64,000 nt of DNA from Thermoguttaceae bacterium. GTDB lineage: Bacteria > Planctomycetota > Planctomycetia > Pirellulales > Thermoguttaceae. The notes below the pieces were generated by a model, which was not told the origin of the DNA, did no database searches, and saw only the letters and a program-made list of their open reading frames with translations. Location: NCBI GenBank assembly GCA_039698075.1, contig JBDKTJ010000003.1, forward strand, positions 3,101-67,100. The letters are read 5' to 3'. Each line of letters opens with the position of its first letter. Position 1 is the stretch's first letter. A program made the position numbers and the translations under genes. Positions 11,313-56,700 of the stretch are shown here, piece by piece.

Positions 11313-11957
11313 ATGGGCACGATTCTTCGACTCGACCATTCGCCGCACGGCTTGCACGGTGCGGACATGAACTTCGACGACCTGGTCGCCGAGGCCGATC
11401 GGCATGCGTCCGCACGGAAACTCGAGGCCGAGCGTCTGGTCGCCGAAGCCCGACAAGAGGCCGAGGCCATCCGTCAGCAAGCCGCCGAGGAAGGCGCGCT
11501 GGCGGCGGCCCAGGCGGTCGAACGCATGGTGGCCGAGCAGTTGGCCCCGTCGATCGAAGCGTTGCGACGCGCGGCCGACAATCTCCACACGGCCAAGCAA
11601 TCGTGGCTTGCCCATTGGGAGTCGAGCGCCGTCCGATTGGCTTCGGCGATGGCCGCCCGAATCCTCCGCGGCGAGTTGCGTCGTCAGCCGGAGGTGACGC
11701 TCCGACTGGTCCGTGAGGCGTTGGAGCTGGCCGCCGGCAGCGCGAACGTTCGTCTGCGTCTGCATCCCGACGACCTCAAGGCCTTGGGCTCGCAGGTGCA
11801 AGCGATGATCGACTCGATGTCGTCGCTCGGCGCCGCCGAACTGACGCCCGACCCGTCCATCACCCGAGGCGGCTGCCGCGTCGACACCCGCTTCGGCACG
11901 ATCGACCAACAATTCGAGTCCCAGTTGCAACGCATGGAAGAAGAGTTGACCGGCTAA
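11313..11957 (+). CDS. fliH: Flagellar assembly protein FliH
   Basis: 214 aa with a coiled-coil Ala/Glu-rich N-half and a C-terminal ...GGCRVDTRFGTIDQQFESQL. It lies between fliG and fliI. Confidence 0.8.
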   Translation: MGTILRLDHSPHGLHGADMNFDDLVAEADRHASARKLEAERLVAEARQEAEAIRQQAAEEGALAAAQAVERMVAEQLAPSIEALRRAADNLHTAKQSWLAHWESSAVRLASAMAARILRGELRRQPEVTLRLVREALELAAGSANVRLRLHPDDLKALGSQVQAMIDSMSSLGAAELTPDPSITRGGCRVDTRFGTIDQQFESQLQRMEEELTG

Positions 11958-11981
11958 CCCCTAGCCTCTAGCCCCTAGCCC
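11958..11981 (+). repeat. C-rich heptad repeat CCCCTAGCCTCTAGCCCCTAGCCC filling the fliH-fliI junction
   Basis: Read directly from the sequence. It runs from just after the fliH TAA to the fliI ATG and belongs to the CTAGCCC/CTAATCC motif family. Confidence 0.8.
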
Positions 11982-13307
11982 ATGTCCGACCTTACCGAAC
12001 AACTCGACCAGATCATGCCGACGTCGCTCATGGGCAGCGTTGCGCGGACGATCGGCACGACGATTTCCGCGTCGGATTTTCCGGCGCCGATCGGGGCCGT
12101 GGCGGAAATCCAACGGCAGTCGGGCGATCCGTTGACGGCCGAGGTCGTCGGTTTTCGCGACGATTTGACCGTGCTGTATCCGTTGAGCCGATTCGACGGC
12201 GTGCGGCGAGGCAACCGCGTTCGTCTGGTCCGCACTGCGAGGTGGTTGCGCGTGGGTGACGAGTTGCTGGGCCGGGTGATCGACGCCGAGGGCCGCCCGA
12301 TCGACGGTCGTCCGTTGCCGGCGCTCGACCAGCGCGTCTCGCTGCAACAATCGCCGCCCGATCCGTGCGCCCGACCGCGCATCGACGAGCCGCTTTCGAC
12401 CGGCGTCCGCGCGATCGACGGTCTGTTGACGTGCGGCAAAGGTCAGCGGATGGGCATTTTTTCCGGCTCCGGCGTCGGCAAGAGCACGCTGCTGGGCATG
12501 ATGGCCCGCTACAGCTCGGCCGACGTGATCGTCATTGCGTTGATCGGCGAGCGCGGCCGAGAAGTCAATCAGTTCATCGAGCGCGATCTCGGGCCCGAGG
12601 GCTTGGCCAAGAGCGTGGTCGTCGTGGCCACGAGCGATCAGCCGGCGCTCACGCGAACCCAAGCGGCGCAGACCGCCACGGCCGTGGCCGAGCATTTTCG
12701 CGATCGCGGCAAGGATGTGTTGTTGTTGATGGATTCGCTGACGCGGTTTGCGTTGGCCCAACGCGAGATCGGACTGGCGGCCGGCGAGCCGCCGACGACG
12801 CGCGGATTTACGCCCTCGGTGTTCGCCGCGTTGCCGAGACTGGTCGAACGGACCGGTCGAAGCGCGTCGGGCAGCATCACCGCATTTTATTCCGTGCTGG
12901 TCGAAGCGGACGATCCGAACGAGCCGATCAGCGACGCCGTTCGCGGATTGTTGGACGGCCACACCTGGCTTTCGCGTCATCTGGCGTCGCGCGGCCATTA
13001 TCCGGCCATCGACGTGCTGGAAAGCATCAGCCGTTTGACGCCGGACGTGGTCGACTCGGAACAGTTGCAGGCGATTCACGCGATTCGCGCCATGCTCGGG
13101 GCGCACCGCGATCATCAGGATTTGATTTCGATCGGCGCGTATCGCCGCGGCAGCAACCGGACCGTCGACGCCGCGATCGAGTTGCAGGAGGCGTTGAACG
13201 AGTACCTGCGTCAACCGATCGGGCGGCCCGCCTCGCTGGCCGAGGCCCGGCGCGAATTGCTCGAACTTTTCGATCGATACCAAACGTTGCTCGAACCGTC
13301 CGAATAA
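11982..13307 (+). CDS. fliI: Flagellum-specific ATPase FliI
   Basis: 441 aa with Walker A GSGVGKSTLLGMM, Walker B VLLLMDSLTR and the F1/T3SS ATPase fold pattern. Confidence 0.95.
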   Translation: MSDLTEQLDQIMPTSLMGSVARTIGTTISASDFPAPIGAVAEIQRQSGDPLTAEVVGFRDDLTVLYPLSRFDGVRRGNRVRLVRTARWLRVGDELLGRVIDAEGRPIDGRPLPALDQRVSLQQSPPDPCARPRIDEPLSTGVRAIDGLLTCGKGQRMGIFSGSGVGKSTLLGMMARYSSADVIVIALIGERGREVNQFIERDLGPEGLAKSVVVVATSDQPALTRTQAAQTATAVAEHFRDRGKDVLLLMDSLTRFALAQREIGLAAGEPPTTRGFTPSVFAALPRLVERTGRSASGSITAFYSVLVEADDPNEPISDAVRGLLDGHTWLSRHLASRGHYPAIDVLESISRLTPDVVDSEQLQAIHAIRAMLGAHRDHQDLISIGAYRRGSNRTVDAAIELQEALNEYLRQPIGRPASLAEARRELLELFDRYQTLLEPSE

Positions 13308-14764: not shown

Positions 14765-15564
14765 TGGGCCGTTGGATGCCAATGCTCTGTTTGTTCGGGT
14801 GCCTGCTGTTCGTCGCGGTTGCGCGGGCGGATGAGTCGAACGCCGCGCCGGCCAATCAACCGCTGTCGGTCGGACTGCCCGACGGATTGGCCGCCGGTCC
14901 GAAAGGTTGGACCAGTCCCGAGGGGCTCGGTTCGACGTTGCAGATGATGCTGTTGCTGACCGTGTTGAGTCTGGCGCCGGCGGCGTTGCTGATGACCACC
15001 TGTTTTGTCCGCATCGTGGTGGTGCTGAGCCTGCTGCGGCAAGCGCTCGGAACGCAGAATCTTCCGCCGACGCAGGTGATCACCACGCTGGCGTTGTTCT
15101 TGACGCTGCTGATTATGAGTCCGGCGTGGAAACAAGTGTACGATAGCGCAGTCGTTCCGTACACGCAGCATCGGATCGACGCCCAACAGGCGTGGACGAC
15201 CGGCGTCGCGCCGATCCGTCGCTTCATGAGCGCGCAGATTGAAAACACGAAGAACACCGAGGACGTGTGGCTGTTTTTGAACTACCTGCCGCATCGCGCC
15301 GCGCCGGCCAGCTACGACGATGTGCCGCTGCAAGCCCTGCTGCCGGCGTTTATGCTGAGCGAACTGAAGACGGCCTTTTTGATCGGGTTTACGATTTTTC
15401 TTCCGTTTTTGATTCTCGACATGGTCGTGGCCAGCGTCATGGTGTCGATGAGCATGTTGATGGTTCCACCGGCGTTGGTGTCGCTGCCATTGAAGTTGCT
15501 GTTGTTCGTTCTGGTCGACGGCTGGCGTCTGGTCGTCGGAATGCTTTTGCAGAGTTTCCAGTAA
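14761..15564 (+). CDS. fliP: Flagellar export apparatus protein FliP
   Basis: Signal-like N-terminus and conserved [32 protein letters not shown]... and [27 protein letters not shown]. Start chosen at ATG 14761. Confidence 0.9.
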
Positions 15565-15566
15565 AT

Positions 15567-15663
15567 GAGGGATTGGGGATTAGATACAACCGCGGAAAAC
15601 CAAACGTGGTGCGATGTGATTGAAACTACCCCGACCCCCGCGTCCCCTAATCCCTAATCCCTC
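15567..15663 (+). repeat. Inverted repeat (17-bp stem, 63-nt loop) in the fliP-fliQ spacer, built from the CTAATCC heptad motif
   Basis: GAGGGATTGGGGATTAG (15567-15583) pairs with CTAATCCCTAATCCCTC (15647-15663). They are complementary except for one G.U position. The 3' arm ends 9 nt before the fliQ ATG. Confidence 0.85.
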
Positions 15664-15672
15664 CCGCCTCCC

Positions 15673-15939
15673 ATGGACCAACAAACCGCCGTTGAACTGG
15701 GCCGCCAAGCGTTTTGGACGATGCTGTTGATCGGTTCGCCGGTGTTGGCCGCGGGCCTGATCGTTGGGCTGGTGATTGGACTGTTGCAGGCGCTCACGCA
15801 AATCCAAGAGCAAACCGTGGCCTTCGTTCCGAAAATCATCGTCATGTTGCTGGTTCTCAGCGCGACGCTGCCGTGGCTGATCGCGCAAATGGTTCAATAC
15901 ACCCACGACCTGATCGCCGGTATTCCGGGTCGGTGGTGA
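15673..15939 (+). CDS. fliQ: Flagellar export apparatus protein FliQ
   Basis: 88-aa two-TM protein of the FliQ/HrpO family type, positioned between fliP and fliR. Confidence 0.9.
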   Translation: MDQQTAVELGRQAFWTMLLIGSPVLAAGLIVGLVIGLLQALTQIQEQTVAFVPKIIVMLLVLSATLPWLIAQMVQYTHDLIAGIPGRW

Positions 15940-16823: not shown

Positions 16824-16840
16824 CTAATCCCTAATCCCTC
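16824..16840 (+). repeat. CTAATCCCTAATCCCTC motif copy 6 nt upstream of the flhB ATG
   Basis: This 17-mer is identical to 15647-15663. Confidence 0.85.
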
Positions 16841-16846
16841 TTTCCC

Positions 16847-17608
16847 ATGGCCGAGTACGCCGGCGAAAAAACGCTCGACCCGACCCCGCACCGTCGCCAA
16901 CAGGCGCGGCGCGAAGGGCATGTGGCCAAGAGCCAGGAGTTGGGCTCGGCCGCCGTGCTGTTGGCGGGCATTGCGCTGCTGATGGTTTTGGGCGGCGGAT
17001 TGGCGGGCTTTTTGGCCGACTATTGCCGCACCCAACTCGGCGGCGAACCTTGCCTGTCGATCAGCGCCGAGGGCGTGGTGGATCAGTGGAACGCAACGCT
17101 TTGGTCGCTCGGCCGTTGGATGGCGCCGATCCTCGGGCTGCTTTTTTTGACTGGCGTGGCGATCCACGTGCTTCAAGTTGGATTTTTGTTCCTGCCACAA
17201 CGACTCGGATTCGACCCCACCCGGCTCGACCCGATTCGCGGATTGCAGCGGATTTTTTCCGGCGCGAATCTGGTCCGCCTGGGCATGGGGCTTTTGAAAC
17301 TTGCGATTCTCCTGGGCGTGGCGTCGGTGGTGCTTTACGGCCAACGCGAGGAGATTCTGTCGCTCAGCAGCCTAGCGCCGGCGCCGTTGGCTCAACAAGT
17401 GACGCATATCCTGCTGAACACGGCCCTGAAGCTCGGCGCGGCCTTGTTGGTCTTGGCGCTGTTGGATTACGCCTATCAATGGTGGCGGCACGAGCAGGAC
17501 CTCAAGATGACGCCGCAAGAATTGCGTGAGGAACTGCAAAATCTCGAAGGCAATCCGCAAGTTCTCGCCCGGCGAAAACAGATGCAGCGCGAACTGGCGA
17601 AGAAATGA
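16847..17608 (+). CDS. flhB: FlhB, N-terminal transmembrane part plus linker only; the C-terminal NPTH switch domain is absent
   Basis: 253 aa. Starts MAEYAGEKTLDPTPHRRQQARREGHVAKSQEL (FlhB-type), has 4 TM segments, and ends ...MTPQELREELQNLEGNPQVLARRKQMQRELAKK*. A convergent gene ends 7 nt downstream. Confidence 0.85.
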   Translation: MAEYAGEKTLDPTPHRRQQARREGHVAKSQELGSAAVLLAGIALLMVLGGGLAGFLADYCRTQLGGEPCLSISAEGVVDQWNATLWSLGRWMAPILGLLFLTGVAIHVLQVGFLFLPQRLGFDPTRLDPIRGLQRIFSGANLVRLGMGLLKLAILLGVASVVLYGQREEILSLSSLAPAPLAQQVTHILLNTALKLGAALLVLALLDYAYQWWRHEQDLKMTPQELREELQNLEGNPQVLARRKQMQRELAKK

Positions 17609-17615
17609 CCCACGG

Positions 17616-18845
17616 TCACGCTTCGTATCCGTACCGCTCGGCGTATTTTTTCCACCGCCGACCGATCTCGGCTTTCATCTCGGGCGTGATTTCGTAGCGA
17701 TTGGTCCGATAGTTCTTTTGACCGGCGAAATAGGCCTCGACGCCGGGCCGAGCGGCCTCGAAGTCGCCCAGATCCAACTCCTGATACACCCGCCGCATCT
17801 CGCCGAGCGGATCGGCCACGAGTTGCTCGTAACGGACTTCGCAAAACTGGCCCTTGCCCAACAAATCGCGATCCCGATCGAAGGCGTCGTACATCCGAGT
17901 CAGCGTTTGGAACACCTGCTCGTCGAGCCCCTCGCATTTCGGCGCCTGCAATCCCTGATCGCGATAGAGCCGTCGCCAAAGGTTCACGGTCGAGGGGAAA
18001 AGAATCCGCGGGTCACGAACGATGTGAACGAACTTCGCCCGCGGAAACATCTCCAGCAAAACGCGAATCCGCGCGGTGTGCGGCGGCGACTTCAACACGA
18101 TCCGCTTCGGATCGCGCAACGTCAGGCACTTCAGAAACCAAAGGAATTGGCTCTTCCAACGATGCAACGCCGACGCCGACACGCCGCGGAAATCGAGATA
18201 CTCCTGATATTGCGGCGGACGATTTGAAAAAACCGCCGTCAGATACGGCGACGGCAGACCCATGTTGCACAAGGCAAACTCGTCCTCTTGCGGATGACTC
18301 CACCCGGCCGGCATGTTGTCGATCGGCCGCTGCGTCGGCAGAAGCACCTGCAACCACGGCTTCATCCACCAACCGGACACCAAAAAATGGTTCGGCGCGA
18401 AACAATCGTACGTGTCGGGATACGTGTGGCGCGGATCGCGCACCAACAACTCATGCAGCAGCGTGGTGCCGGAGCGCCAGTGTCCGATCACGAAAATCGG
18501 GTCGTAGTCGATCCGCGTCCGCTCGATTTTCCGACGGTAGAAAAAAATCTGGATCAGCCAGAGGAAGGAATTGAAAAAGCTCAGGCCCGCGATAATCAAG
18601 GCCATCGCGATGCGGGACGGCGCCACGGCGAACCGATTGCGCCACAGCAGCGAAAACCAGCCGATCACGCCGATGCCGTCCCAAAAACGCGGGATCCAAA
18701 ACCGATCCTTGTAGCCGCCTTTCTGCGAGGCGTCGGGCTTGTCGGCCTTGCCCTTGCCTTGGACGGAACCTGAAGGCGGAGACAAATGGCCTTTTGACTT
18801 TCTCTCTAAACACTCAGAACTACCCAGATTAACCATTCGATCCAT
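17616..18845 (-). CDS. Membrane-anchored sulfotransferase family protein
   Basis: 409 aa with N-terminal TM helices, then a PAPS-binding-like motif IGHWRSGTTLLHELL and the later KSPPHTARIRVL. Confidence 0.75.
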   Translation of the reverse strand: MDRMVNLGSSECLERKSKGHLSPPSGSVQGKGKADKPDASQKGGYKDRFWIPRFWDGIGVIGWFSLLWRNRFAVAPSRIAMALIIAGLSFFNSFLWLIQIFFYRRKIERTRIDYDPIFVIGHWRSGTTLLHELLVRDPRHTYPDTYDCFAPNHFLVSGWWMKPWLQVLLPTQRPIDNMPAGWSHPQEDEFALCNMGLPSPYLTAVFSNRPPQYQEYLDFRGVSASALHRWKSQFLWFLKCLTLRDPKRIVLKSPPHTARIRVLLEMFPRAKFVHIVRDPRILFPSTVNLWRRLYRDQGLQAPKCEGLDEQVFQTLTRMYDAFDRDRDLLGKGQFCEVRYEQLVADPLGEMRRVYQELDLGDFEAARPGVEAYFAGQKNYRTNRYEITPEMKAEIGRRWKKYAERYGYEA

Positions 18846-33858: not shown

Positions 33859-36102
33859 CTATCGCAACTGATATTTTCTGCGCAACACCCATTCGACGGT
33901 CAACACGCCGACGAACGCGACCCAAAAGCCCGGCGGCCAGTACAATCGGCGTTCGACGCGCACGATTCTCTTTTCCTGCCGACGATCGAGCTGGTCGATC
34001 AGGTGATCGGCGGTGGCCAGCGAGACATAGCGGCCTCCGGTCGCTTCGGCGATGCGTTCGAGCGTTTTTTCGTCCAAGTCGAGCCGCTCAAATTCGAGGT
34101 TCGTTCGCCCCACTTCGACCGACACGGCGTCGGAGGCCAACAGCGATTCCTGCTGTCGGGCCTCGATCGTGATCGCGTGCGTGCCGGACGTTTTCGGCTC
34201 GAACACGCCGGAATAATGTCCGCCCGGCCCAGCCACCGGCGAGAGCGTCGTCTGCCGAGTTTTGCCGTCGGGCCCGCGAACCGTCGCCACAACCGCGGCA
34301 TCGGCGGCCCCTCGACCTTGCCGATCGCGCACGACGGCCGACACGTGGATCGACTCGCCCGGCTCATAATACGCCTTGTCGGTCGAGACGGTCGCGCCGG
34401 CGGTCGCCTCGACGCTTTCTTCGCGACCGGCCAGCCAGCGGACGGTTTGCCCCCAAAATCGCATGAACGGCGACTCTCGGTCGCGGGCCTGAGGGCCTTG
34501 TTGCCAACGGCGCGTCGTGTCGCCGGCGAACACCGCCGTCCGACCTCGTTCGAGCGGCTGCACGGCCAGCATCGGCATCGCACCCAACGACGCGGGACAC
34601 CCGGCCAACACGGTCGCACTGGGCTTGGCCCCTTGCACTCGCGTGCAACCGTCCAACGTCGGCAAGCCCGGGGTCGTCGGCGGCCCCTGCCGCGTTGGAA
34701 AGAATCCGGCGATGTTCGCAAAGATCGGGTGTCGCACTCCCTCGGGCGTGAGCACCGGCAAAAACGGCTCGGTCACTTGTCCGATCCGTCGGTTGCCCAA
34801 CGCAAGCGGCAGCGCGTCGCCAAGCGGCGTGCCGTCGTATCCGCCCGGCCCGAGACTGTGATAGCCGCCCAACATCAACAGGCCTGCCCCTTGACGAACC
34901 CGACGAACGATCATCTCTTGTTGCCTCGGACGAAAATACGAACTGTCGAGGTCACCGATCAAAAAAACATCGAACCGGTCGATCGTCTCCTGATCGGTCG
35001 GAATCGCGCGGAGTTGCAGCCCGGTCATATTGGTTCGCCGCAAAAACACGTCGGGCTTCGTTTGCACCAGCGAGCAAAACTCGACGTCGGGATCCTTGGC
35101 CAGAAACCGATCGACCAGCGCGCCGTATTCCGTGCGCAGCGTGCCCTCGAGGTACAACACGCGGATGCCTTTTTCGACGACCATCGCGACGGCCGAGCGG
35201 CGATTGTTTTCGACGATTTTTTCTTCGGCCGCCGGCTCGACGCGGACGGTGATCGTGTGGCGGCCTTTTTGCATGGGCCGAAACTCCAACGCCGCCGTCT
35301 GCGACCCCTCGGCGTCGTCCAGCGTCAGTTCCGCCTGCGCCACACGGCGGCCGTCTTCCTCGAGCACGACCGTCGCCGTCCGTCCGCCCAACCCCACCGC
35401 GTCGATCGAGGCCGTGACGCGGGCCATGTTGCCCAGCATCATGCGGTCGGGACAGTCGAGCCCGACGACCCGAATGTCGCGATACGTCAGATTGTTGCGC
35501 AGACTGGCGCCGACGCCGATGCCGTGGACCACGACGCCCAACTGACTCGCCACTTGCGACGGATTGCCCGCCGCGTTGTGAATCCCGTCGGACATCAACA
35601 GCACGGCGGCCACCTCCGCGGGCGGCAACTGTCGAGCGGCGAACGACAACGCCTTGACCAGCGACGTGGCCTTGCCTGTCGGCGTTAGCTCTCGCAACGA
35701 CTCCGGCCCGTCCAATAATCGCGGCTGTTCGGCAAACGCGATCGGCAGCAACCGAAAATCGCCTCGCAGCTTTTCCTGCCATTTTTCCAGCTTGTCCCGA
35801 GCCCGATCGAAACGCGACCGGCCCGAGGCGTCGTCGGCCAGGCTCATCGACGCGGAGGCGTCCAGCAAGAAAACCACCGCGGGCTTCTGGCCTGTCTCTT
35901 TCGGATAGCTCAACACCGGCTGAAACAACAGCCCGACGACCAGCAGAATCGCCGCGACGCGCAACGCCAGCAACAGGCCCCAACGCCGCACGCCCAAGGA
36001 GCCAAACGTCCGGCGATAAAACAACGCCGTCAGCACGACCGCCGCCAATGCGACCGCCAGCATGGTTCCGACGCCGTAATTTTGGGCAAGGCTAAGGTGC
36101 AT
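33859..36102 (-). CDS. Membrane-anchored vWA domain protein with a GATase1-like/ThuA-like C-terminal region (BatB-like)
   Basis: 747 aa with N-terminal TM helices, the MIDAS-like VVFLLDASASMSL, later VFLIGDLDSSYF...GLLMLGGYHSLG, and a C-terminal TM. Confidence 0.75.
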   Translation of the reverse strand: MHLSLAQNYGVGTMLAVALAAVVLTALFYRRTFGSLGVRRWGLLLALRVAAILLVVGLLFQPVLSYPKETGQKPAVVFLLDASASMSLADDASGRSRFDRARDKLEKWQEKLRGDFRLLPIAFAEQPRLLDGPESLRELTPTGKATSLVKALSFAARQLPPAEVAAVLLMSDGIHNAAGNPSQVASQLGVVVHGIGVGASLRNNLTYRDIRVVGLDCPDRMMLGNMARVTASIDAVGLGGRTATVVLEEDGRRVAQAELTLDDAEGSQTAALEFRPMQKGRHTITVRVEPAAEEKIVENNRRSAVAMVVEKGIRVLYLEGTLRTEYGALVDRFLAKDPDVEFCSLVQTKPDVFLRRTNMTGLQLRAIPTDQETIDRFDVFLIGDLDSSYFRPRQQEMIVRRVRQGAGLLMLGGYHSLGPGGYDGTPLGDALPLALGNRRIGQVTEPFLPVLTPEGVRHPIFANIAGFFPTRQGPPTTPGLPTLDGCTRVQGAKPSATVLAGCPASLGAMPMLAVQPLERGRTAVFAGDTTRRWQQGPQARDRESPFMRFWGQTVRWLAGREESVEATAGATVSTDKAYYEPGESIHVSAVVRDRQGRGAADAAVVATVRGPDGKTRQTTLSPVAGPGGHYSGVFEPKTSGTHAITIEARQQESLLASDAVSVEVGRTNLEFERLDLDEKTLERIAEATGGRYVSLATADHLIDQLDRRQEKRIVRVERRLYWPPGFWVAFVGVLTVEWVLRRKYQLR

Positions 36103-36136
36103 GAGAAGGGATTAGGGATTAGGGGCTAGGGGCTAG
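36103..36136 (-). repeat. Heptad repeat on the coding strand, CTAGCCCCTAGCCCCTAATCCCTAATCCCTTCTC, ending at the ATG of the vWA gene
   Basis: The plus strand reads GAGAAGGGATTAGGGATTAGGGGCTAGGGGCTAG. It combines both heptad variants and overlaps the stop codon of the upstream gene. Confidence 0.85.
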
Positions 36137-52210: not shown

Positions 52211-53710
52211 ATGATGAATACCCAATCGTCTCCACATCGGTCTTCCAAGCGGTGGCGATGGCTCGCAGCCATTGCGATTCTCGTAGCATTGGGGTTGGCG
52301 GCCGCCGGCCTTTGGTCGCCGCAACTTCGGCGGATCGCCACGTCCTCATGGACTGCCCTGGCCGCTCACTCGCCGAACGACGGCCACGATCACGCGGAAA
52401 AGAAAAAACACGACGACGAGGACGACGACCACCACGACGGCGATCGAGACCATCACGACGGCGACGAGGACGAGCACGATCATGCGCATGCCGCTCAAAA
52501 CCACAAGCACGACGAAGCCACGTCGATCAAGCTGAGCAAACAGGCCCAGAACAACATCGGCCTCCGATTGACCAAGGTCGCCTTGGGTCCGTTCGAGCGG
52601 ACCATGAACGTGCCGGGCATCGTGGTCGAGCGTCCGGGCTGGTCCGTGTTGGAGGTCACTGCGCCGATGACGGGCGTGGTCATGCAAATCTATCCGATCC
52701 AAGGCGAGGCCGTCCGGCACGATCAGCCGCTTTTTGAAATCCGCCTGACGCACGAGGACCTGCTGCAACTACAGACGGAGTTCCTGCGCACCGTCGAGGA
52801 GTTGGACGTCATCGGCCACGAGGTGGCGCGGTTGGAAAAAATCTCGGCCGACGGCGTCATTGCCGGCAAGACGCTGCTGGAACGCAAATACGAGCAGCAA
52901 AAGCAGGAAGCGGCGATGAGGGCGCAGCGGCAGGCCTTGCTCCTGCACGGACTGTCGGAAGAGCAAGTCAACCGGATCGCCTCGACGCGCACGCTGCTGC
53001 AAAGCTTGACGATTTACGCGCCGGAGCAAAAAGGCCCAAATTCGTCGCGTCATCCGCCGCGTCACTTGCAAGTTCAGCAGTTGAAAGTCACTCAGGGAAA
53101 GCACGTCAACGCGGGCGACACGCTTTGCACGCTCGTCGACCAACACGAACTGTTCATCGAGGGCATCGCCTTTGAACAAGACATTCAGTCCGTCAATCGG
53201 GTGGCCGCCTCAACGCGCAAGGTTTCGGCCACGTTCGGGTCGAAATCCTCCGGCGACGAGCACACGACGCCAGACCTCCGCATTCTCTATCTCGACGACA
53301 AGGTCGACCCGCAGTCCCGGGCGTTCCATTTCTACGTGACGCTGCCGAATCGCATCTTGCGCGAAGACAAGACCCCCGAGGGACGCAATTTTGTGTATTG
53401 GCAATTCAAGCCCGGCCAAAGGACGCAGCTCCGCATTCCCGTCGAGGCGTGGACGAATCGCATCGTGCTGCCCGTCGAGGCAATTGCCCAAGACGGGGCC
53501 GAGTTTTACGTGTTCGAGGCCAACGGCGATCATTTCGACCGCCGGGCGGTTCACGTCGAGTATCGCGATCAAGATTGGGCCGTGATCGCCAACGACGGTG
53601 CGTTGCGCGTCGGGTCCACCGTGGCCGCCTCGGCCGCGCACCAAGTGCATTTGGCCCTAAAAAACAAGTCCGGCGGCGGAGTCGATCCCCATGCGGGACA
53701 TAACCACTAG
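52211..53710 (+). CDS. Efflux RND periplasmic adaptor (HlyD/CzcB/CusB-like) with an N-terminal His/Asp-rich tract
   Basis: Start chosen at MMNTQSS, followed by a TM anchor. The His/Asp tract is HDGHDHAEKKKHDDEDDDHHDGDRDHHDGDEDEHDHAH. Barrel-sandwich/coiled-coil adaptor pattern (PMTGVVMQIYPIQGEAVRHDQPLFEI). The track ORF starts at 52079. Confidence 0.85.
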   Translation: MMNTQSSPHRSSKRWRWLAAIAILVALGLAAAGLWSPQLRRIATSSWTALAAHSPNDGHDHAEKKKHDDEDDDHHDGDRDHHDGDEDEHDHAHAAQNHKHDEATSIKLSKQAQNNIGLRLTKVALGPFERTMNVPGIVVERPGWSVLEVTAPMTGVVMQIYPIQGEAVRHDQPLFEIRLTHEDLLQLQTEFLRTVEELDVIGHEVARLEKISADGVIAGKTLLERKYEQQKQEAAMRAQRQALLLHGLSEEQVNRIASTRTLLQSLTIYAPEQKGPNSSRHPPRHLQVQQLKVTQGKHVNAGDTLCTLVDQHELFIEGIAFEQDIQSVNRVAASTRKVSATFGSKSSGDEHTTPDLRILYLDDKVDPQSRAFHFYVTLPNRILREDKTPEGRNFVYWQFKPGQRTQLRIPVEAWTNRIVLPVEAIAQDGAEFYVFEANGDHFDRRAVHVEYRDQDWAVIANDGALRVGSTVAASAAHQVHLALKNKSGGGVDPHAGHNH

Positions 53711-53791
53711 TGGCCAACACTAGTGGCCAGTGGTCGGTGGTCAGTGGCCAGAAATTAGGCCGAGCAACGCAACCTAATCCCTAATCCCTAG
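53705..53791 (+). repeat. Composite tandem repeats in the adaptor-pump junction
   Basis: Two 13-mers, CACTAGTGGCCAA and CACTAGTGGCCAG, then TGGTCGG, TGGTCAG and TGGCCAG (53705-53751). CTAATCCCTAATCCCTAG follows at 53774-53791, 4 nt before the ATG at 53796. Confidence 0.85.
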
Positions 53792-53795
53792 CTCC

Positions 53796-56700
53796 ATGCT
53801 CAACGCCATTATTCGATTTTCGTTGCACTATCGACTGCTGACCATCTCGGTCGCGGTGGTCGTGCTGGTGTACGGCGGATACGTTTTGTATCAGTTGCCG
53901 ATCGACGTGTTCCCCGATTTGGACCGGCCTCGGGTCACGGTGATGACCGAAGCACCCGGCCTGGCGCCCGAGGAAGTCGAGACCCTGGTCACTTTTCCGT
54001 TGGAATCCGTTCTCAACGGGGCGACCGGCGTTCAAGCGGTTCGCAGTTCGTCGGGCATCGGACTGTCGGTCGTACAGGTCGAGTTCGCCTGGGGCACCGA
54101 CATCTACATCGACCGTCAGATCGTGGCCGAAAAATTGGCCCTAGCGGCCGAACGACTGCCCGAGGGCGTGCGTCCGCAGATGGGCCCGATCTCGTCGATC
54201 ATGGGCCAAATTATGATCATCGGCATGTGGAGCGAGGGCGGCAAGACCTCGCCGATGGAGGTGCGCACGCTGGCCGACTGGGTCGTGCGGCAACGACTTC
54301 TGACGATTCCGCGCGTCGCCCAGGTGATTACGATGGGCGGCGGCCGCAAACAATATCAAGTGTTGGTCAATCCCGTCGCGTTGCGATCCTACGGAATCAC
54401 GCTGCACGAGGTCGAGCAGGCGATGGCGGCCAGCAACGCCAACGCGACGGGCGGATATCTGAATCGCGGGGCGCGCGAGTATCTGGTCCGATCGATCGGC
54501 CGGCTGCAAAGCGTCGAAGACATCGAAAACGTCGTCGTGAAGCCGGACGGCGAGCGGCCGGTGCTGTTGCGCCAAGTGGCCCGGATCGTCGAGGCCCCGC
54601 AGGTCAAACGCGGCGATTCGGCGGTCAACGGCGAGCCGGCCGTGATGCTCACCATCGCCAAGCAGCCCGGCGCCGACACGCGGCTGCTGACCGATCAGAT
54701 CGCCAAGGCGCTCAAAGAGCTCAAAGGCAGTCTGCCGCCCGACATCCGCATCAATCCGGACGTCTATCAACAAAAATCGTTCATCGAGCTGGGCATTCAC
54801 AACGTCATCGACGCCTTGCGGGACGGCGGCATTCTGGTCGTCATCATCCTGTTCCTGTTCCTGTTGAACTTCCGCACCACGTTCATCACGCTGACGGCCA
54901 TCCCGCTTTCGATGGTCATCACCGGATTGATCTTCAAGTGGTTCCACATGTCGATCAACACGATGACGCTCGGCGGGCTGGCCGTGGCCATCGGCGAGTT
55001 GGTCGACGACGCGATCGTGGACGTGGAAAACATCTTTCGCCGGCTGCGCGAGAACAAACATTCGCCGAACCCAAAACATCCGTTGCGCGTGGTGTACGAG
55101 GCCAGCAGCGAGGTGCGCAACTCGATCGTCTTCAGCACGATCCTGGTCGTGTTGGTTTTCGTGCCGCTGTTCGCGTTGGGCGGCATGGAAGGCCGGCTGT
55201 TCACGCCGCTCGGCGTGGCCTACATCGTTTCGATTCTCGCCTCGCTGGTGGTGTCGCTCACCGTCACGCCGGTGTTGTCGTATTGGCTGCTGCCCAACGC
55301 AAAAGTGATGGGCCACGACCGCGACGGCCTGATGCTGCGGTGGCTCAAACGCGCGGTGGGCTACGCGATCCGTTTCAGCGTCCGACATCCCTGGCCGGTG
55401 CTGGGCGTCGTCACCGTGGGCGTCGCGATCAGTTGCCTGACGGTGTCGCAGTTGGGACGCGACTTCCTGCCGCCCTTCAACGAGGGCACGGTGCAGATCA
55501 ACGTCCTGCTGCCGCCCGGCGACTCGCTGGACACCTCGAACCGAATCGCCGGCATGGTCGAAGACCGGCTTAAAAACATCCGGGGCGTGGTCGCCTTCGG
55601 ACGCCGCACCGGTCGGGCCGAGTTGGACGAGCACGCCGAGGGCGTCAATATGTCGGAGATCATCGTCACGTTCGATCCGAAACTGGGCCGCAGCCGCGAA
55701 GAGGTCATGACCGACATCCGCGAGGAATTGACCCAAGTGCCCGGCGCGGTGATCGCCGCCGAGCAGCCGTTGCAGCATGTGATCAGCGCGATGCTGTCGG
55801 GCGTCAAGGCGCAGGTGGGCATCAAACTTTACGGCGACGACCTCAACGTGCTCCGGACGAAAGCCAACGAGATGAAGACGGCCATCCAAAACGTCCGCGG
55901 CGTCAAGGACCTCATGGTCGAGCAGCAGATCGAGATTCCGCAGGTGCGCATCAATCTGGACCGCAAGGCCCTGGCGTCCTATGGGCTCAATACGGCCGAC
56001 GTCAACGAGTTGATCGAAACGGCCATGAACGGCCGCGTCGTGTCGGAACTGGTTTTCGGCGAGCGGAAGTTCGACCTGCTGGTGCGGTTGGACGATGTTT
56101 TTCGCAACGATCCGCAGGAGTTGCAGCGGATGACCCTCGCATTGCCGAGCCAGGGCAAAATTCCGCTCAGCGCCGTGGCGGACGTGGCGGACTCGAGTGG
56201 GCCGAACACGATCAACCGCGAAAACGTGCGGCGGCGCATCATCGTCCAATGCAACACCGCCGGACGCGACCTGGGCAGCACGGTGACCGAAATCCAGCAA
56301 CGATTGGCCCCCATTCAGTCGTCCCTGCCCGTCGGCTACTTCATCGAATACAGCGGCCAGTTCGAGAGCCAGCAGTCGGCCACTCGAACCATCAGCCTGC
56401 TGAGCATCGTCTCGCTGGCCTGCATGTTGTTGACGCTCTACACGCTGTTCCACTCGCTCAACCTCAGCCTGCAAGTGTTGGCCGCGTTGCCGATGGCCGC
56501 GATCGGCGCGGTCGCCGCGTTGGTCATCACTCGGCAATCGCTGACCGTGGCCAGCATGGTGGGCTTCATCTCGCTGGCCGGCATCGCCTCGCGCAACGGC
56601 ATCTTGCTGATCGCCCATTATCTGCACCTGGTCCGCTACGAAGGCGAACATTTTACGCCCGAGATGATCGAACGCGCCGGCAAGGAGCGACTGGCGCCGA

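Follow-up and report, generated by a model that had tools for sequence, protein, structure and literature searches.

Strand-polar heptanucleotide repeats between co-directional genes of a Thermoguttaceae bacterium, and the hairpin that precedes fliQ

In a Thermoguttaceae bacterium of the phylum Planctomycetota, the flagellar genes fliP and fliQ are separated by a spacer of 108 nucleotides (nt) whose ends pair as a hairpin built from heptanucleotide repeats, and the locus raises the question of what these repeats are and how ribosomes would reach a fliQ start codon that no Shine-Dalgarno (SD) sequence precedes. The DNA analysed is a stretch of 64,000 nt (NCBI GenBank assembly GCA_039698075.1, contig JBDKTJ010000003.1, positions 3,101 to 67,100 of the forward strand), the whole of which is called the window here, and of which a preliminary description existed. 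We conclude with high confidence that the element belongs, as one local copy, to a strand-polar class of heptanucleotide simple sequence repeats (SSRs) that fills spacers between co-directional genes. With high confidence too, the polarity of the class places the G-poor strand (C, A and T) on the mRNA before the start codon, often with a G-rich inverted copy after the upstream stop. As to function, we put at about even chances the reading that the arrays are slippage-born repeats kept as unstructured, SD-less leaders, and that the hairpin before fliQ couples its translation to that of fliP.

The hairpin itself was found as the preliminary description had given it, coordinates and fold agreeing: the arms GAGGGATTGGGGATTAG (15567-15583) and CTAATCCCTAATCCCTC (15647-15663) are reverse complements save for one G.U position, forming a 17-bp stem with a 63-nt loop; the 3' arm is followed by 9 nt (CCGCCTCCC) and then by the fliQ ATG at 15673. 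The stem opens 2 nt past the fliP stop codon (TAA, 15562-15564). The predicted minimum free energy (MFE) fold of the spacer RNA is exactly this 17-bp stem, at -43.7 kcal/mol (z = -4.56), and 0 of 200 shuffled spacers folded as well. The parts of the spacer are as follows.

15567-15583, plus strand: 5' arm of the hairpin, with G-rich heptads (AGGGATT, GGGGATT) in sense orientation, beginning 2 nt past the fliP stop.
15584-15646, plus strand: hairpin loop of 63 nt, of unique sequence (from the fold and the copy search).
15643-15663, plus strand: C-rich heptad array on the sense strand, CCCTAAT x2.6, with zero G; 3' arm of the hairpin.
15664-15675, plus strand: C-rich tail CCGCCTCCC and the fliQ start codon (ATG 15673), with no SD.

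Several familiar kinds of element can be set aside at this junction. The 3' arm is followed by CCGCCTCCCATG, and because there is no U tract the stem is not an intrinsic (Rho-independent) terminator; a terminator and promoter scan likewise gave no consensus coinciding with the hairpin. A known RNA family was rejected, as an Rfam 15 scan at gathering score returned zero matches anywhere in the window. A mobile element with heptads as terminal inverted repeats was also ruled out, because a search of the window and of 2.5 Mb of fetched loci turned up no second instance of the 63-nt loop. A 30-codon open reading frame (ORF) at 15565-15657 (+), whose ATG abuts the fliP stop (TAAATG), spans the whole hairpin and ends, 15 nt short of the fliQ ATG, with a TAA within the C-rich arm. 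As a possible translational relay it was dropped, since the frame is not conserved in relatives.

That the repeated word recurs in the window, as had been claimed, is far from random: the exact 14-mer CTAATCCCTAATCC stands at 15647+, 16824+, 53774+ and 36109-, and at up to two mismatches it has 6 matches, against 0.07 expected from shuffles. The CTAGCCC variant that had been reported beside it is also present, both as a four-unit array at 11954-11981 and within 36107-36136, where it extends the minus-strand array. Tandem Repeats Finder (TRF) placed period-7 arrays at 11954-81, 15645-62, 16824-39, 36107-36 and 53773-90, each of 2-4 units; on the G strand these units (AGGGATT, GGGGATT, GGGGCTA) consist of a tract of three or four Gs and an A/T-rich remainder. 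Outside the fliP-fliQ spacer the repeats of the window are these.

11954-11981, plus strand: CTAACCC CTAGCCT CTAGCCC CTAGCCC; contains the fliH stop (TAA 11955-11957) and abuts the fliI ATG at 11982.
16824-16839, plus strand: CTAATCC x2.3; ends 7 nt before the flhB ATG at 16847; unpaired in predicted folds.
36107-36136, minus strand: CTAGCCC x2 and CTAATCC x2; holds the TAG of the upstream ORF and ends 4 nt before the ATG at 36102.
53773-53790, plus strand: CTAATCC x2.6 before the ATG of the AcrB-family gene at 53796; offers TAA, TAA and TAG in the three frames.
53705-53751, plus strand: CACTAGTGGCCAA x2, from the last codons of the HlyD-type gene, then AGTGGTC x4.3; G-rich, with the stop at 53708-53710.

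Each of the five arrays found by TRF has the sense orientation of a well-supported downstream gene, which Pfam identifies as FliI (11982), FliQ (15673), FlhB (16847), a VWA/GATase1-like protein (36102, minus) and an AcrB-family pump (53796). The gaps between array and ATG are 0 nt for FliI, 10 nt for FliQ, 7 nt for FlhB, 4 nt for the VWA/GATase1-like gene and about 5-6 nt for the pump. A purine-rich SD (GGAG, GAGG or AGGA, 4-17 nt before the start) was found at 0/5 of these genes, and clear GGAGG-type SDs occur at other genes of the window (58155, 51676, 48285, 13881). The claim of a sense-oriented, start-proximal motif lacking an SD was thus borne out at 5/5 arrays, with gaps of 0-10 nt. So too was the claim that the motif always sits inside operons, once the ORF upstream of 36102 had been checked: this 179-aa frame (36665-36126, minus; GC profile 0.58/0.42/0.71) has its TAG stop inside the 36107-36136 array, so that all five sites are co-directional junctions (fliH-fliI, fliP-fliQ, fliR-flhB, orf179-VWA and HlyD-AcrB). 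FliH precedes FliI, and the HlyD-type gene precedes the pump.

The hairpin is a more restricted feature. Only the fliP-fliQ copy is a hairpin; the other four window arrays are largely unpaired in the predicted MFE folds. The G-rich repeats at 53705-53751 and the CTAATCC array that follows them lack complementarity, so that the polarity (G-rich after the stop, G-poor before the start) holds there without any hairpin. The CACTAGTGGCCAA unit of these repeats contains the palindrome ACTAGT, and AGTGGTC resembles the second Calothrix heptanucleotide, TTGGTCA.

The same polarity was seen in a census of 568 kb, made up of 73 de-duplicated loci and the window. In this DNA 161 TRF rows had period 7, compared with 21 and 35 at periods 6 and 8, respectively. 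Among 130 evaluable period-7 arrays, those ending 12 nt or less before an ORF with an ATG start were G-poor on the sense strand in 44 cases and G-rich in 6, and those lying no more than 12 nt past a stop codon were G-rich on the sense strand in 35 cases and G-poor in 11. Beyond the 44 arrays ending 0-12 nt from an ATG, a further 10 ended at 13-25 nt and 13 at 26-60 nt. Between them, the 44 start-proximal arrays contain 22 distinct units; the 16-mer that the preliminary description had put forward could not be upheld as a functional unit, since at least 22 different heptads serve at orthologous junctions. A stop triplet is present in 35/44 of the start-proximal arrays, and C precedes the ATG at position -1 in 35/44, at -2 in 28 and at -3 in 30. 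This C-rich context may be a lineage-specific start context; 'CC ATG' also occurs at many array-free flhB and fliR orthologues. When three junctions were pooled, an SD-like word was found in 0/42 heptad leaders and 17/104 heptad-free leaders, and the fraction of G from -25 to -1 was 0.07 and 0.23, respectively.

Relatives were reached by a metagenome scan with FliP, which yielded 80 loci at 65-87% identity; a fliP-fliQ spacer was obtained for 73 loci, the window counted as one. Many of these spacers are short (2-23 nt) and repeat-free. A large share of the longer ones run in a constant order from the stop codon through G-rich heptads, a loop and complementary C-rich heptads to a few C-rich nucleotides and the ATG. 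The units of this hairpin type differ by lineage: GGGATTA/CCCTAAT in L236, L242 and L246, GGGATCA/CCCTGAC in L238 and L274, GGGGCTA/CCCTAGC in L249, and GGGTTCA/CCTGAAC in L256 and L304. Elsewhere a G-poor sense array stands alone before the ATG (CACTAAC in L275, L284 and L286; CATCCTT in L248, L258 and L306; CCGCTTT in L307; CCCTAGC x7 in L292), and the fliR-flhB and fliQ-fliR junctions of relatives likewise carry arrays of differing units. At orthologous junctions position and polarity recur, and the unit sequence changes from lineage to lineage. In the near-identical metagenome contigs L307 and L308 the fliP-fliQ spacers measure 76 and 69 nt, a difference of one CCGCTTT unit, which is direct evidence for copy-number slippage. 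The closest relative, GCA_039683135.1 (L316), whose FliP is 93% identical, has a 42-nt spacer, TAAAGGCCGTCCCTCGCCCCTAATCCCTAATCCCTACCAGCCCCCATG, in which the C-rich array is retained (CTAATCC x2) and the remainder differs.

Folding separates the spacers of relatives further. Among the array-bearing fliP-fliQ spacers of 45-300 nt (n = 24), about 8 fold far better than their shuffles (z of -4 or lower) and 5 have an MFE near 0; a stem running from stop to start is present in about one third of the array-bearing spacers. In the clear hairpin-type spacers (n = 8, window included) it extends from 0-6 nt past the stop to 2-9 nt before the AUG, and stems of 25-40 bp are predicted for eight clear orthologous spacers (-30 to -58 kcal/mol, z of -4 or lower), with arms that co-vary by whole units. 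The much longer spacers of L260, L261/L262, L311 and L257 (270-518 nt) also begin with G-rich heptads after the stop and end with C-rich heptads before the ATG, and between these hold long, apparently non-coding inserts and more arrays; no convincing ORF was found in the long loops of L261, L311 and L257.

The bias is not confined to this family. A scan of public collections with CTAATCCCTAATCCCT returned 115 viral-contig stretches and at least 120 genome stretches, and the matches listed come from Acidobacteriota, Planctomycetota (other Thermoguttaceae included), Cyanobacteria (Calothrix, Nostoc, Chlorogloeopsis), Bacteroidota, Chloroflexota, Verrucomicrobiota and Alphaproteobacteria. These listed matches are tandem heptads that mix CTAATCC with CCAATCC, CTGATCC, CTAGTCC, CTATTCC and CTAACCC, often with a G-rich inverted copy nearby. 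Among 211 such listed arrays from broad taxa, ascertained by motif alone and set against ORFs of at least 100 aa with an ATG start, 28 were C-rich on the sense strand and 7 the opposite within 12 nt of the start, and 43 and 12 within 25 nt. The proposed bias in orientation and distance relative to start codons accordingly generalises, at 28 to 7 in this multi-phylum sample of listed matches and at 44 to 6 in the Planctomycete loci. Heptad leaders also occur in phage-like DNA, as seven GC-rich viral contigs (L001, L002, L008, L010, L040, L041 and L100) share one conserved leader, in the order GC-rich hairpin, CTCCTAATTTTCC, CTAATCC x2, CTACTAATCACACCT and the ATG that opens a frame of about 288 aa.

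Comparison with known repeats places the arrays in an existing class, which the preliminary description had not recognised. Tandem heptanucleotides of Calothrix PCC 7601 are known as short tandemly repeated repetitive (STRR) sequences. Repetitive extragenic palindromic (REP) units, each an imperfect palindrome some 35 nt long, are spread by a RAYT transposase. The enterobacterial REP sequences and bacterial interspersed mosaic elements (BIMEs) are, like the arrays, intergenic, transcribed and often located between co-directional genes, and can form stable stem-loops that affect the fate of the mRNA; here, however, the unit is a 7-nt direct repeat, a stem needs two opposed arrays, there is no conserved core and the loop is unique. 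The REP/BIME-like role that had been listed for the motif was abandoned, as the units are not palindromic (a REP unit being an imperfect palindrome of some 20-40 nt) and 4/5 copies are largely unpaired.

The closest match is to the repeats of Rehm et al. (2015), GGGAATC in Xanthomonas and GGGGA(C/T)T in Nostoc, which are intergenic and preferentially placed between aligned ORFs; their G-rich strand is the non-coding one within 50 bp upstream of ORFs and the coding one within 50 bp past stops, convergent pairs can form stem-loops, and G-quadruplexes (G4) and i-motifs were formed in vitro, with no function found (PMC4692102). The arrays described here share the 7-nt tandem unit with a G3-4 tract and an A/T-rich rest (AGGGATT and GGGGATT are nearly the Nostoc unit), the preference for intergenic, co-directional sites (5/5 in the window), the strand rule, the stem-forming convergent pairs, and occupied junctions that related species hold in common while length and sequence vary. 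They differ in phylum (Planctomycetota, Thermoguttaceae), in the shortness of the window arrays (2-4 units, with no clear preference for four), in ending much nearer the ATG (0-12 nt in the Thermoguttaceae lineage) and in that about half of the start-proximal arrays of the lineage would be unable to form a G4. Because many units lack a G/C tract, the common denominator appears to be the G-poverty of the sense strand and not the capacity for G4.

A second likeness is to the TAACTGA repeats of marine Beggiatoaceae, which end about 1 nt before start codons, mostly without an SD, and for which a translational role through S1, Csp or CsrA was proposed (MacGregor 2015; PMC4679880). Both are forward heptamer direct repeats a few nucleotides before the start, in the position of a ribosome-binding site and lacking an SD, and both contain stop triplets, TAACTGA being mostly present in 2-6 copies. 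The units are unrelated (here CTAATCC and CTAGCCC), one unit dominates each genome there whereas many are used here, and stems from stop to start are common here, in contrast to the single inverted pair or so known from those genomes (one case). Termination-reinitiation coupling (e.g. PMC6728339) offers a parallel in an SD-less downstream start spatially near the upstream stop and, by inference here, in opening by the terminating ribosome; the known cases have overlapping genes, very short spacers or idiosyncratic hairpins, in contrast to the generic heptad arrays of this class. A Nostoc preprint speculates that heptamer repeats near start codons influence translation, and for Planctomycetes our literature search yielded no paper on repeats of this kind. 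The tandem heptanucleotides of Calothrix PCC 7601 are cited in PMC4692102, as is work according to which, so far as its citation there goes, heptamer over-representation is a general mutational phenomenon.

In the mechanism that we favour, the G-poor array on the mRNA would take the place of the SD, as a leader unable to pair with itself that would offer almost no AUG, GUG or UUG and often stops in three frames. Ribosomes could then arrive at the true AUG without SD pairing, either from a protein-mediated standby or by sliding and reinitiating after termination upstream. At fliP-fliQ the added G-rich arm would close the entire 108-nt spacer as a 17-bp stem. A stem that starts 2 nt past the stop is inside the footprint of a terminating ribosome, by established ribosome geometry; a ribosome terminating on fliP would have to melt the stem base, which would free the fliQ leader, and FliQ synthesis may thereby be coupled to FliP synthesis. 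That replication slippage creates and resizes the arrays is partly demonstrated, because period 7 prevails among short tandem repeats and because near-identical contigs differ by one unit. In favour of the whole reading we count the polarity of the arrays around starts and stops, their recurrence in differing units at orthologous junctions, the absence of SD-like words, the low G content and low predicted pairing of the leaders, the co-varying stems and the published parallels in Xanthomonas, Nostoc and Beggiatoaceae. An SD-independent translation or standby element, one of the roles listed in the preliminary description, is the most plausible functional reading, and the interpretation given there is in this sense partly supported.

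A number of points weigh against this mechanism. Every functional step of it is one that we infer, and the speed at which units and copy number change is consistent with selection on sequence being weak or absent. The census was drawn entirely from loci around flagellar operons, with starts called by a crude rule based on ORFs and third-position GC content (GC3). No SD was found at 87/104 heptad-free junctions, from which it follows that arrays are not needed for SD-less initiation. Start codons are depleted in the arrays beyond what G-poverty brings by too little to be significant (7 observed, 11.6 expected, P = 0.085), and selection against upstream start codons beyond G-poverty was rejected. 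A point in its favour, the predicted unpaired probability from -25 to -1, which is higher for the five array genes than for 30 other genes of the window (0.66 vs 0.47, p = 0.008), is qualified in that the interval taken for fliQ leaves out the distal 5' arm. The G arm, the loop and the hairpin are all absent from the fliP-fliQ spacer of GCA_039683135.1, so that coupling through the stem cannot be essential; the hairpin, absent from this closest relative (93% FliP identity) and from 4/5 window copies, is not a constant feature.

Some of these points feed the chief competitor of translational function, which we consider doubtful though a serious contender: the arrays would be non-functional slippage filler that, by expanding in once-short spacers, could not but adjoin the stop and the start, the G-rich strand being filtered from the ribosome-binding region, where G-rich repeats near a start would mimic an SD or form stable structure, and the hairpin would be a by-product of template switching. 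Filler would fit the many repeat-free orthologous spacers of 2-23 nt, the fast turnover of units and copy number, the usual lack of an SD even without arrays (87/104), the sufficiency of G-poverty to account for start-codon depletion and the absence of the hairpin from the nearest relative, as well as a general, mutational over-representation of heptamers, to the extent that the work cited in PMC4692102 describes it. It accounts less well for one and the same junction bearing arrays of independent units in many lineages, for array ends that cluster 0-12 nt from the ATG (44, against 10 at 13-25 nt and 13 at 26-60 nt), for the C-rich array that the closest relative retains although its remaining spacer differs, and for long near-perfect stems maintained with co-varying arms.

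The remaining readings give the repeat a function of another kind. That the hairpin is a REP-like stability or processing element, shielding the fliP segment from 3' exonucleases or directing cleavage so that cistron levels differ, agrees with a very stable stem that encloses the entire spacer between co-directional genes and, lacking a U tract, is no terminator; we nevertheless regard it as improbable, for only 1/5 window copies and about one third of array-bearing orthologous spacers form a hairpin, the closest relative has none, and neither the start-side placement of the C-rich arm nor the single G-free arrays (MFE near 0) at the same position would be explained. Far less credible, to the point of being nearly dismissed, is the suggestion that CUAAUCC pairs with GGAUUAG of the 790 loop of 16S rRNA as an alternative ribosome-binding site. 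CUAAUCC is indeed complementary to this conserved sequence of the E. coli 16S rRNA, and the 5' arm with its flank, GGATTAGATAC, is identical to the 16S 11-mer. The 790 loop, however, takes part in subunit bridging; CCCTGAC, CCCTAGC, CCTGAAC, CACTAAC, CATCCTT, CCGCTTT and CAACTTA are start-proximal and do not match, nor does the published Xanthomonas unit GATTCCC, and the 'GATAC' extension was not found in relatives. As a general rule 790-loop pairing, and with it an enhancer in which CUAAUCC is conserved at equivalent positions, fails because most start-proximal arrays (22 units in 44 arrays) are not complementary to GGAUUAG.

A platform for a trans-acting binder of single-stranded RNA with a footprint of about 7 nt (a cold-shock-domain protein, S1 or another), which would recruit or exclude ribosomes, would suit the 7-nt register of pyrimidine-rich, single-stranded arrays at the position of a ribosome-binding site with no SD, and the same was proposed for the TAACTGA repeats (PMC4679880). 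Since 22 units occupy equivalent positions, a sequence-specific reader is disfavoured and a composition-specific binder alone would fit, and we accord this reading a small probability. Smaller still is the one we allow to a DNA-level G4 or i-motif on the G-rich template strand upstream of the start, modulating transcription or replication. This interpretation is the one preferred for the related repeats of Xanthomonas and Nostoc, which were shown to adopt G4 and i-motif structures in vitro (PMC4692102). At least four G3+ tracts are present on the antisense strand of 15640-15672 and of 36107-36136, and 21/44 start-proximal arrays are G4-capable on the opposite strand. Yet four C3+ tracts are reached at 2/5 window sites only, leaving 3/5 with fewer, and no more than one is present in 15/44 start-proximal arrays, among whose units are CATCCTT, CACTAAC and CAACTTA. 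Polarity, moreover, follows start and stop codons over tens of nucleotides within a single spacer, and this switching points to the level of RNA and translation.

Two further loci of the window stand apart from this argument. The FlhB ORF at 16847-17608 (+) encodes 253 aa, compared with 358-362 aa in relatives, and aligns with positions 1-241 of the Bac_export_2 profile, which has 335; a sulfotransferase-family gene (17616-18845, -) lies between flhB and flhA on the opposite strand; on the strength of the short ORF, the partial profile and the intervening gene, the C-terminal domain of FlhB appears to be missing or displaced. A PD-(D/E)XK ORF of 125 aa (PF13366 PDDEXK_3; 33753-33379, minus) is flanked by long inverted arms within 33810-33322, the upstream one being GGTCGGTGTGAG and (AAGGGGA)x3 (33810-33776) and the downstream one CTTCCCCTTTTTCCCCTTTCCC...CCTCACACCGACC (33366-33322). 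Here too, G-rich sequence comes after a stop codon and C-rich sequence ahead of the next start, with the gene as the 'loop'. No second copy of such a PDDEXK_3 gene was found in the 2.5 Mb of fetched loci, and a tie between heptad arms and PDDEXK_3 cassettes was rejected.

Heptameric repeats are the most over-represented long SSRs in many bacterial genomes, and their role has been in question ever since the tandem heptanucleotides of Calothrix were first described. An ambitious extension of the favoured mechanism, which we judge unlikely, is that heptad arrays are a general SD-independent device for handing ribosomes between cistrons, by G-free arrays serving as tracks devoid of structure and of start codons, and by reinitiation across the base of a stem. 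This would be a bacterial analogue of shunting, with stems reaching from 0-6 nt past the stop to 2-9 nt before the AUG. If it were true, the device would set the proportions of subunits made from operons like fliPQR-flhB, copy-number slippage would provide heritable fine-tuning, and the heptamers of cyanobacteria, xanthomonads, Beggiatoaceae, Acidobacteria and Planctomycetes would have one translational function.

The present locus extends the heptamer class to a new phylum, Planctomycetota, and provides one orthologous junction at which position, strand polarity and often the order of stop, hairpin and start persist while one unit freely replaces another. Free exchange of units argues against a sequence-specific reader, be it a loop of rRNA or a particular protein, and also against G4 as the common denominator, and the pattern points to selection at the level of translation on a G-poor leader. 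It sharpens the long-standing heptamer question and does not settle function. The flagellar export-gate operon needs fixed FliP:FliQ:FliR ratios, and this operon is for that reason a tractable case for SD-independent initiation and coupling in Planctomycetes.

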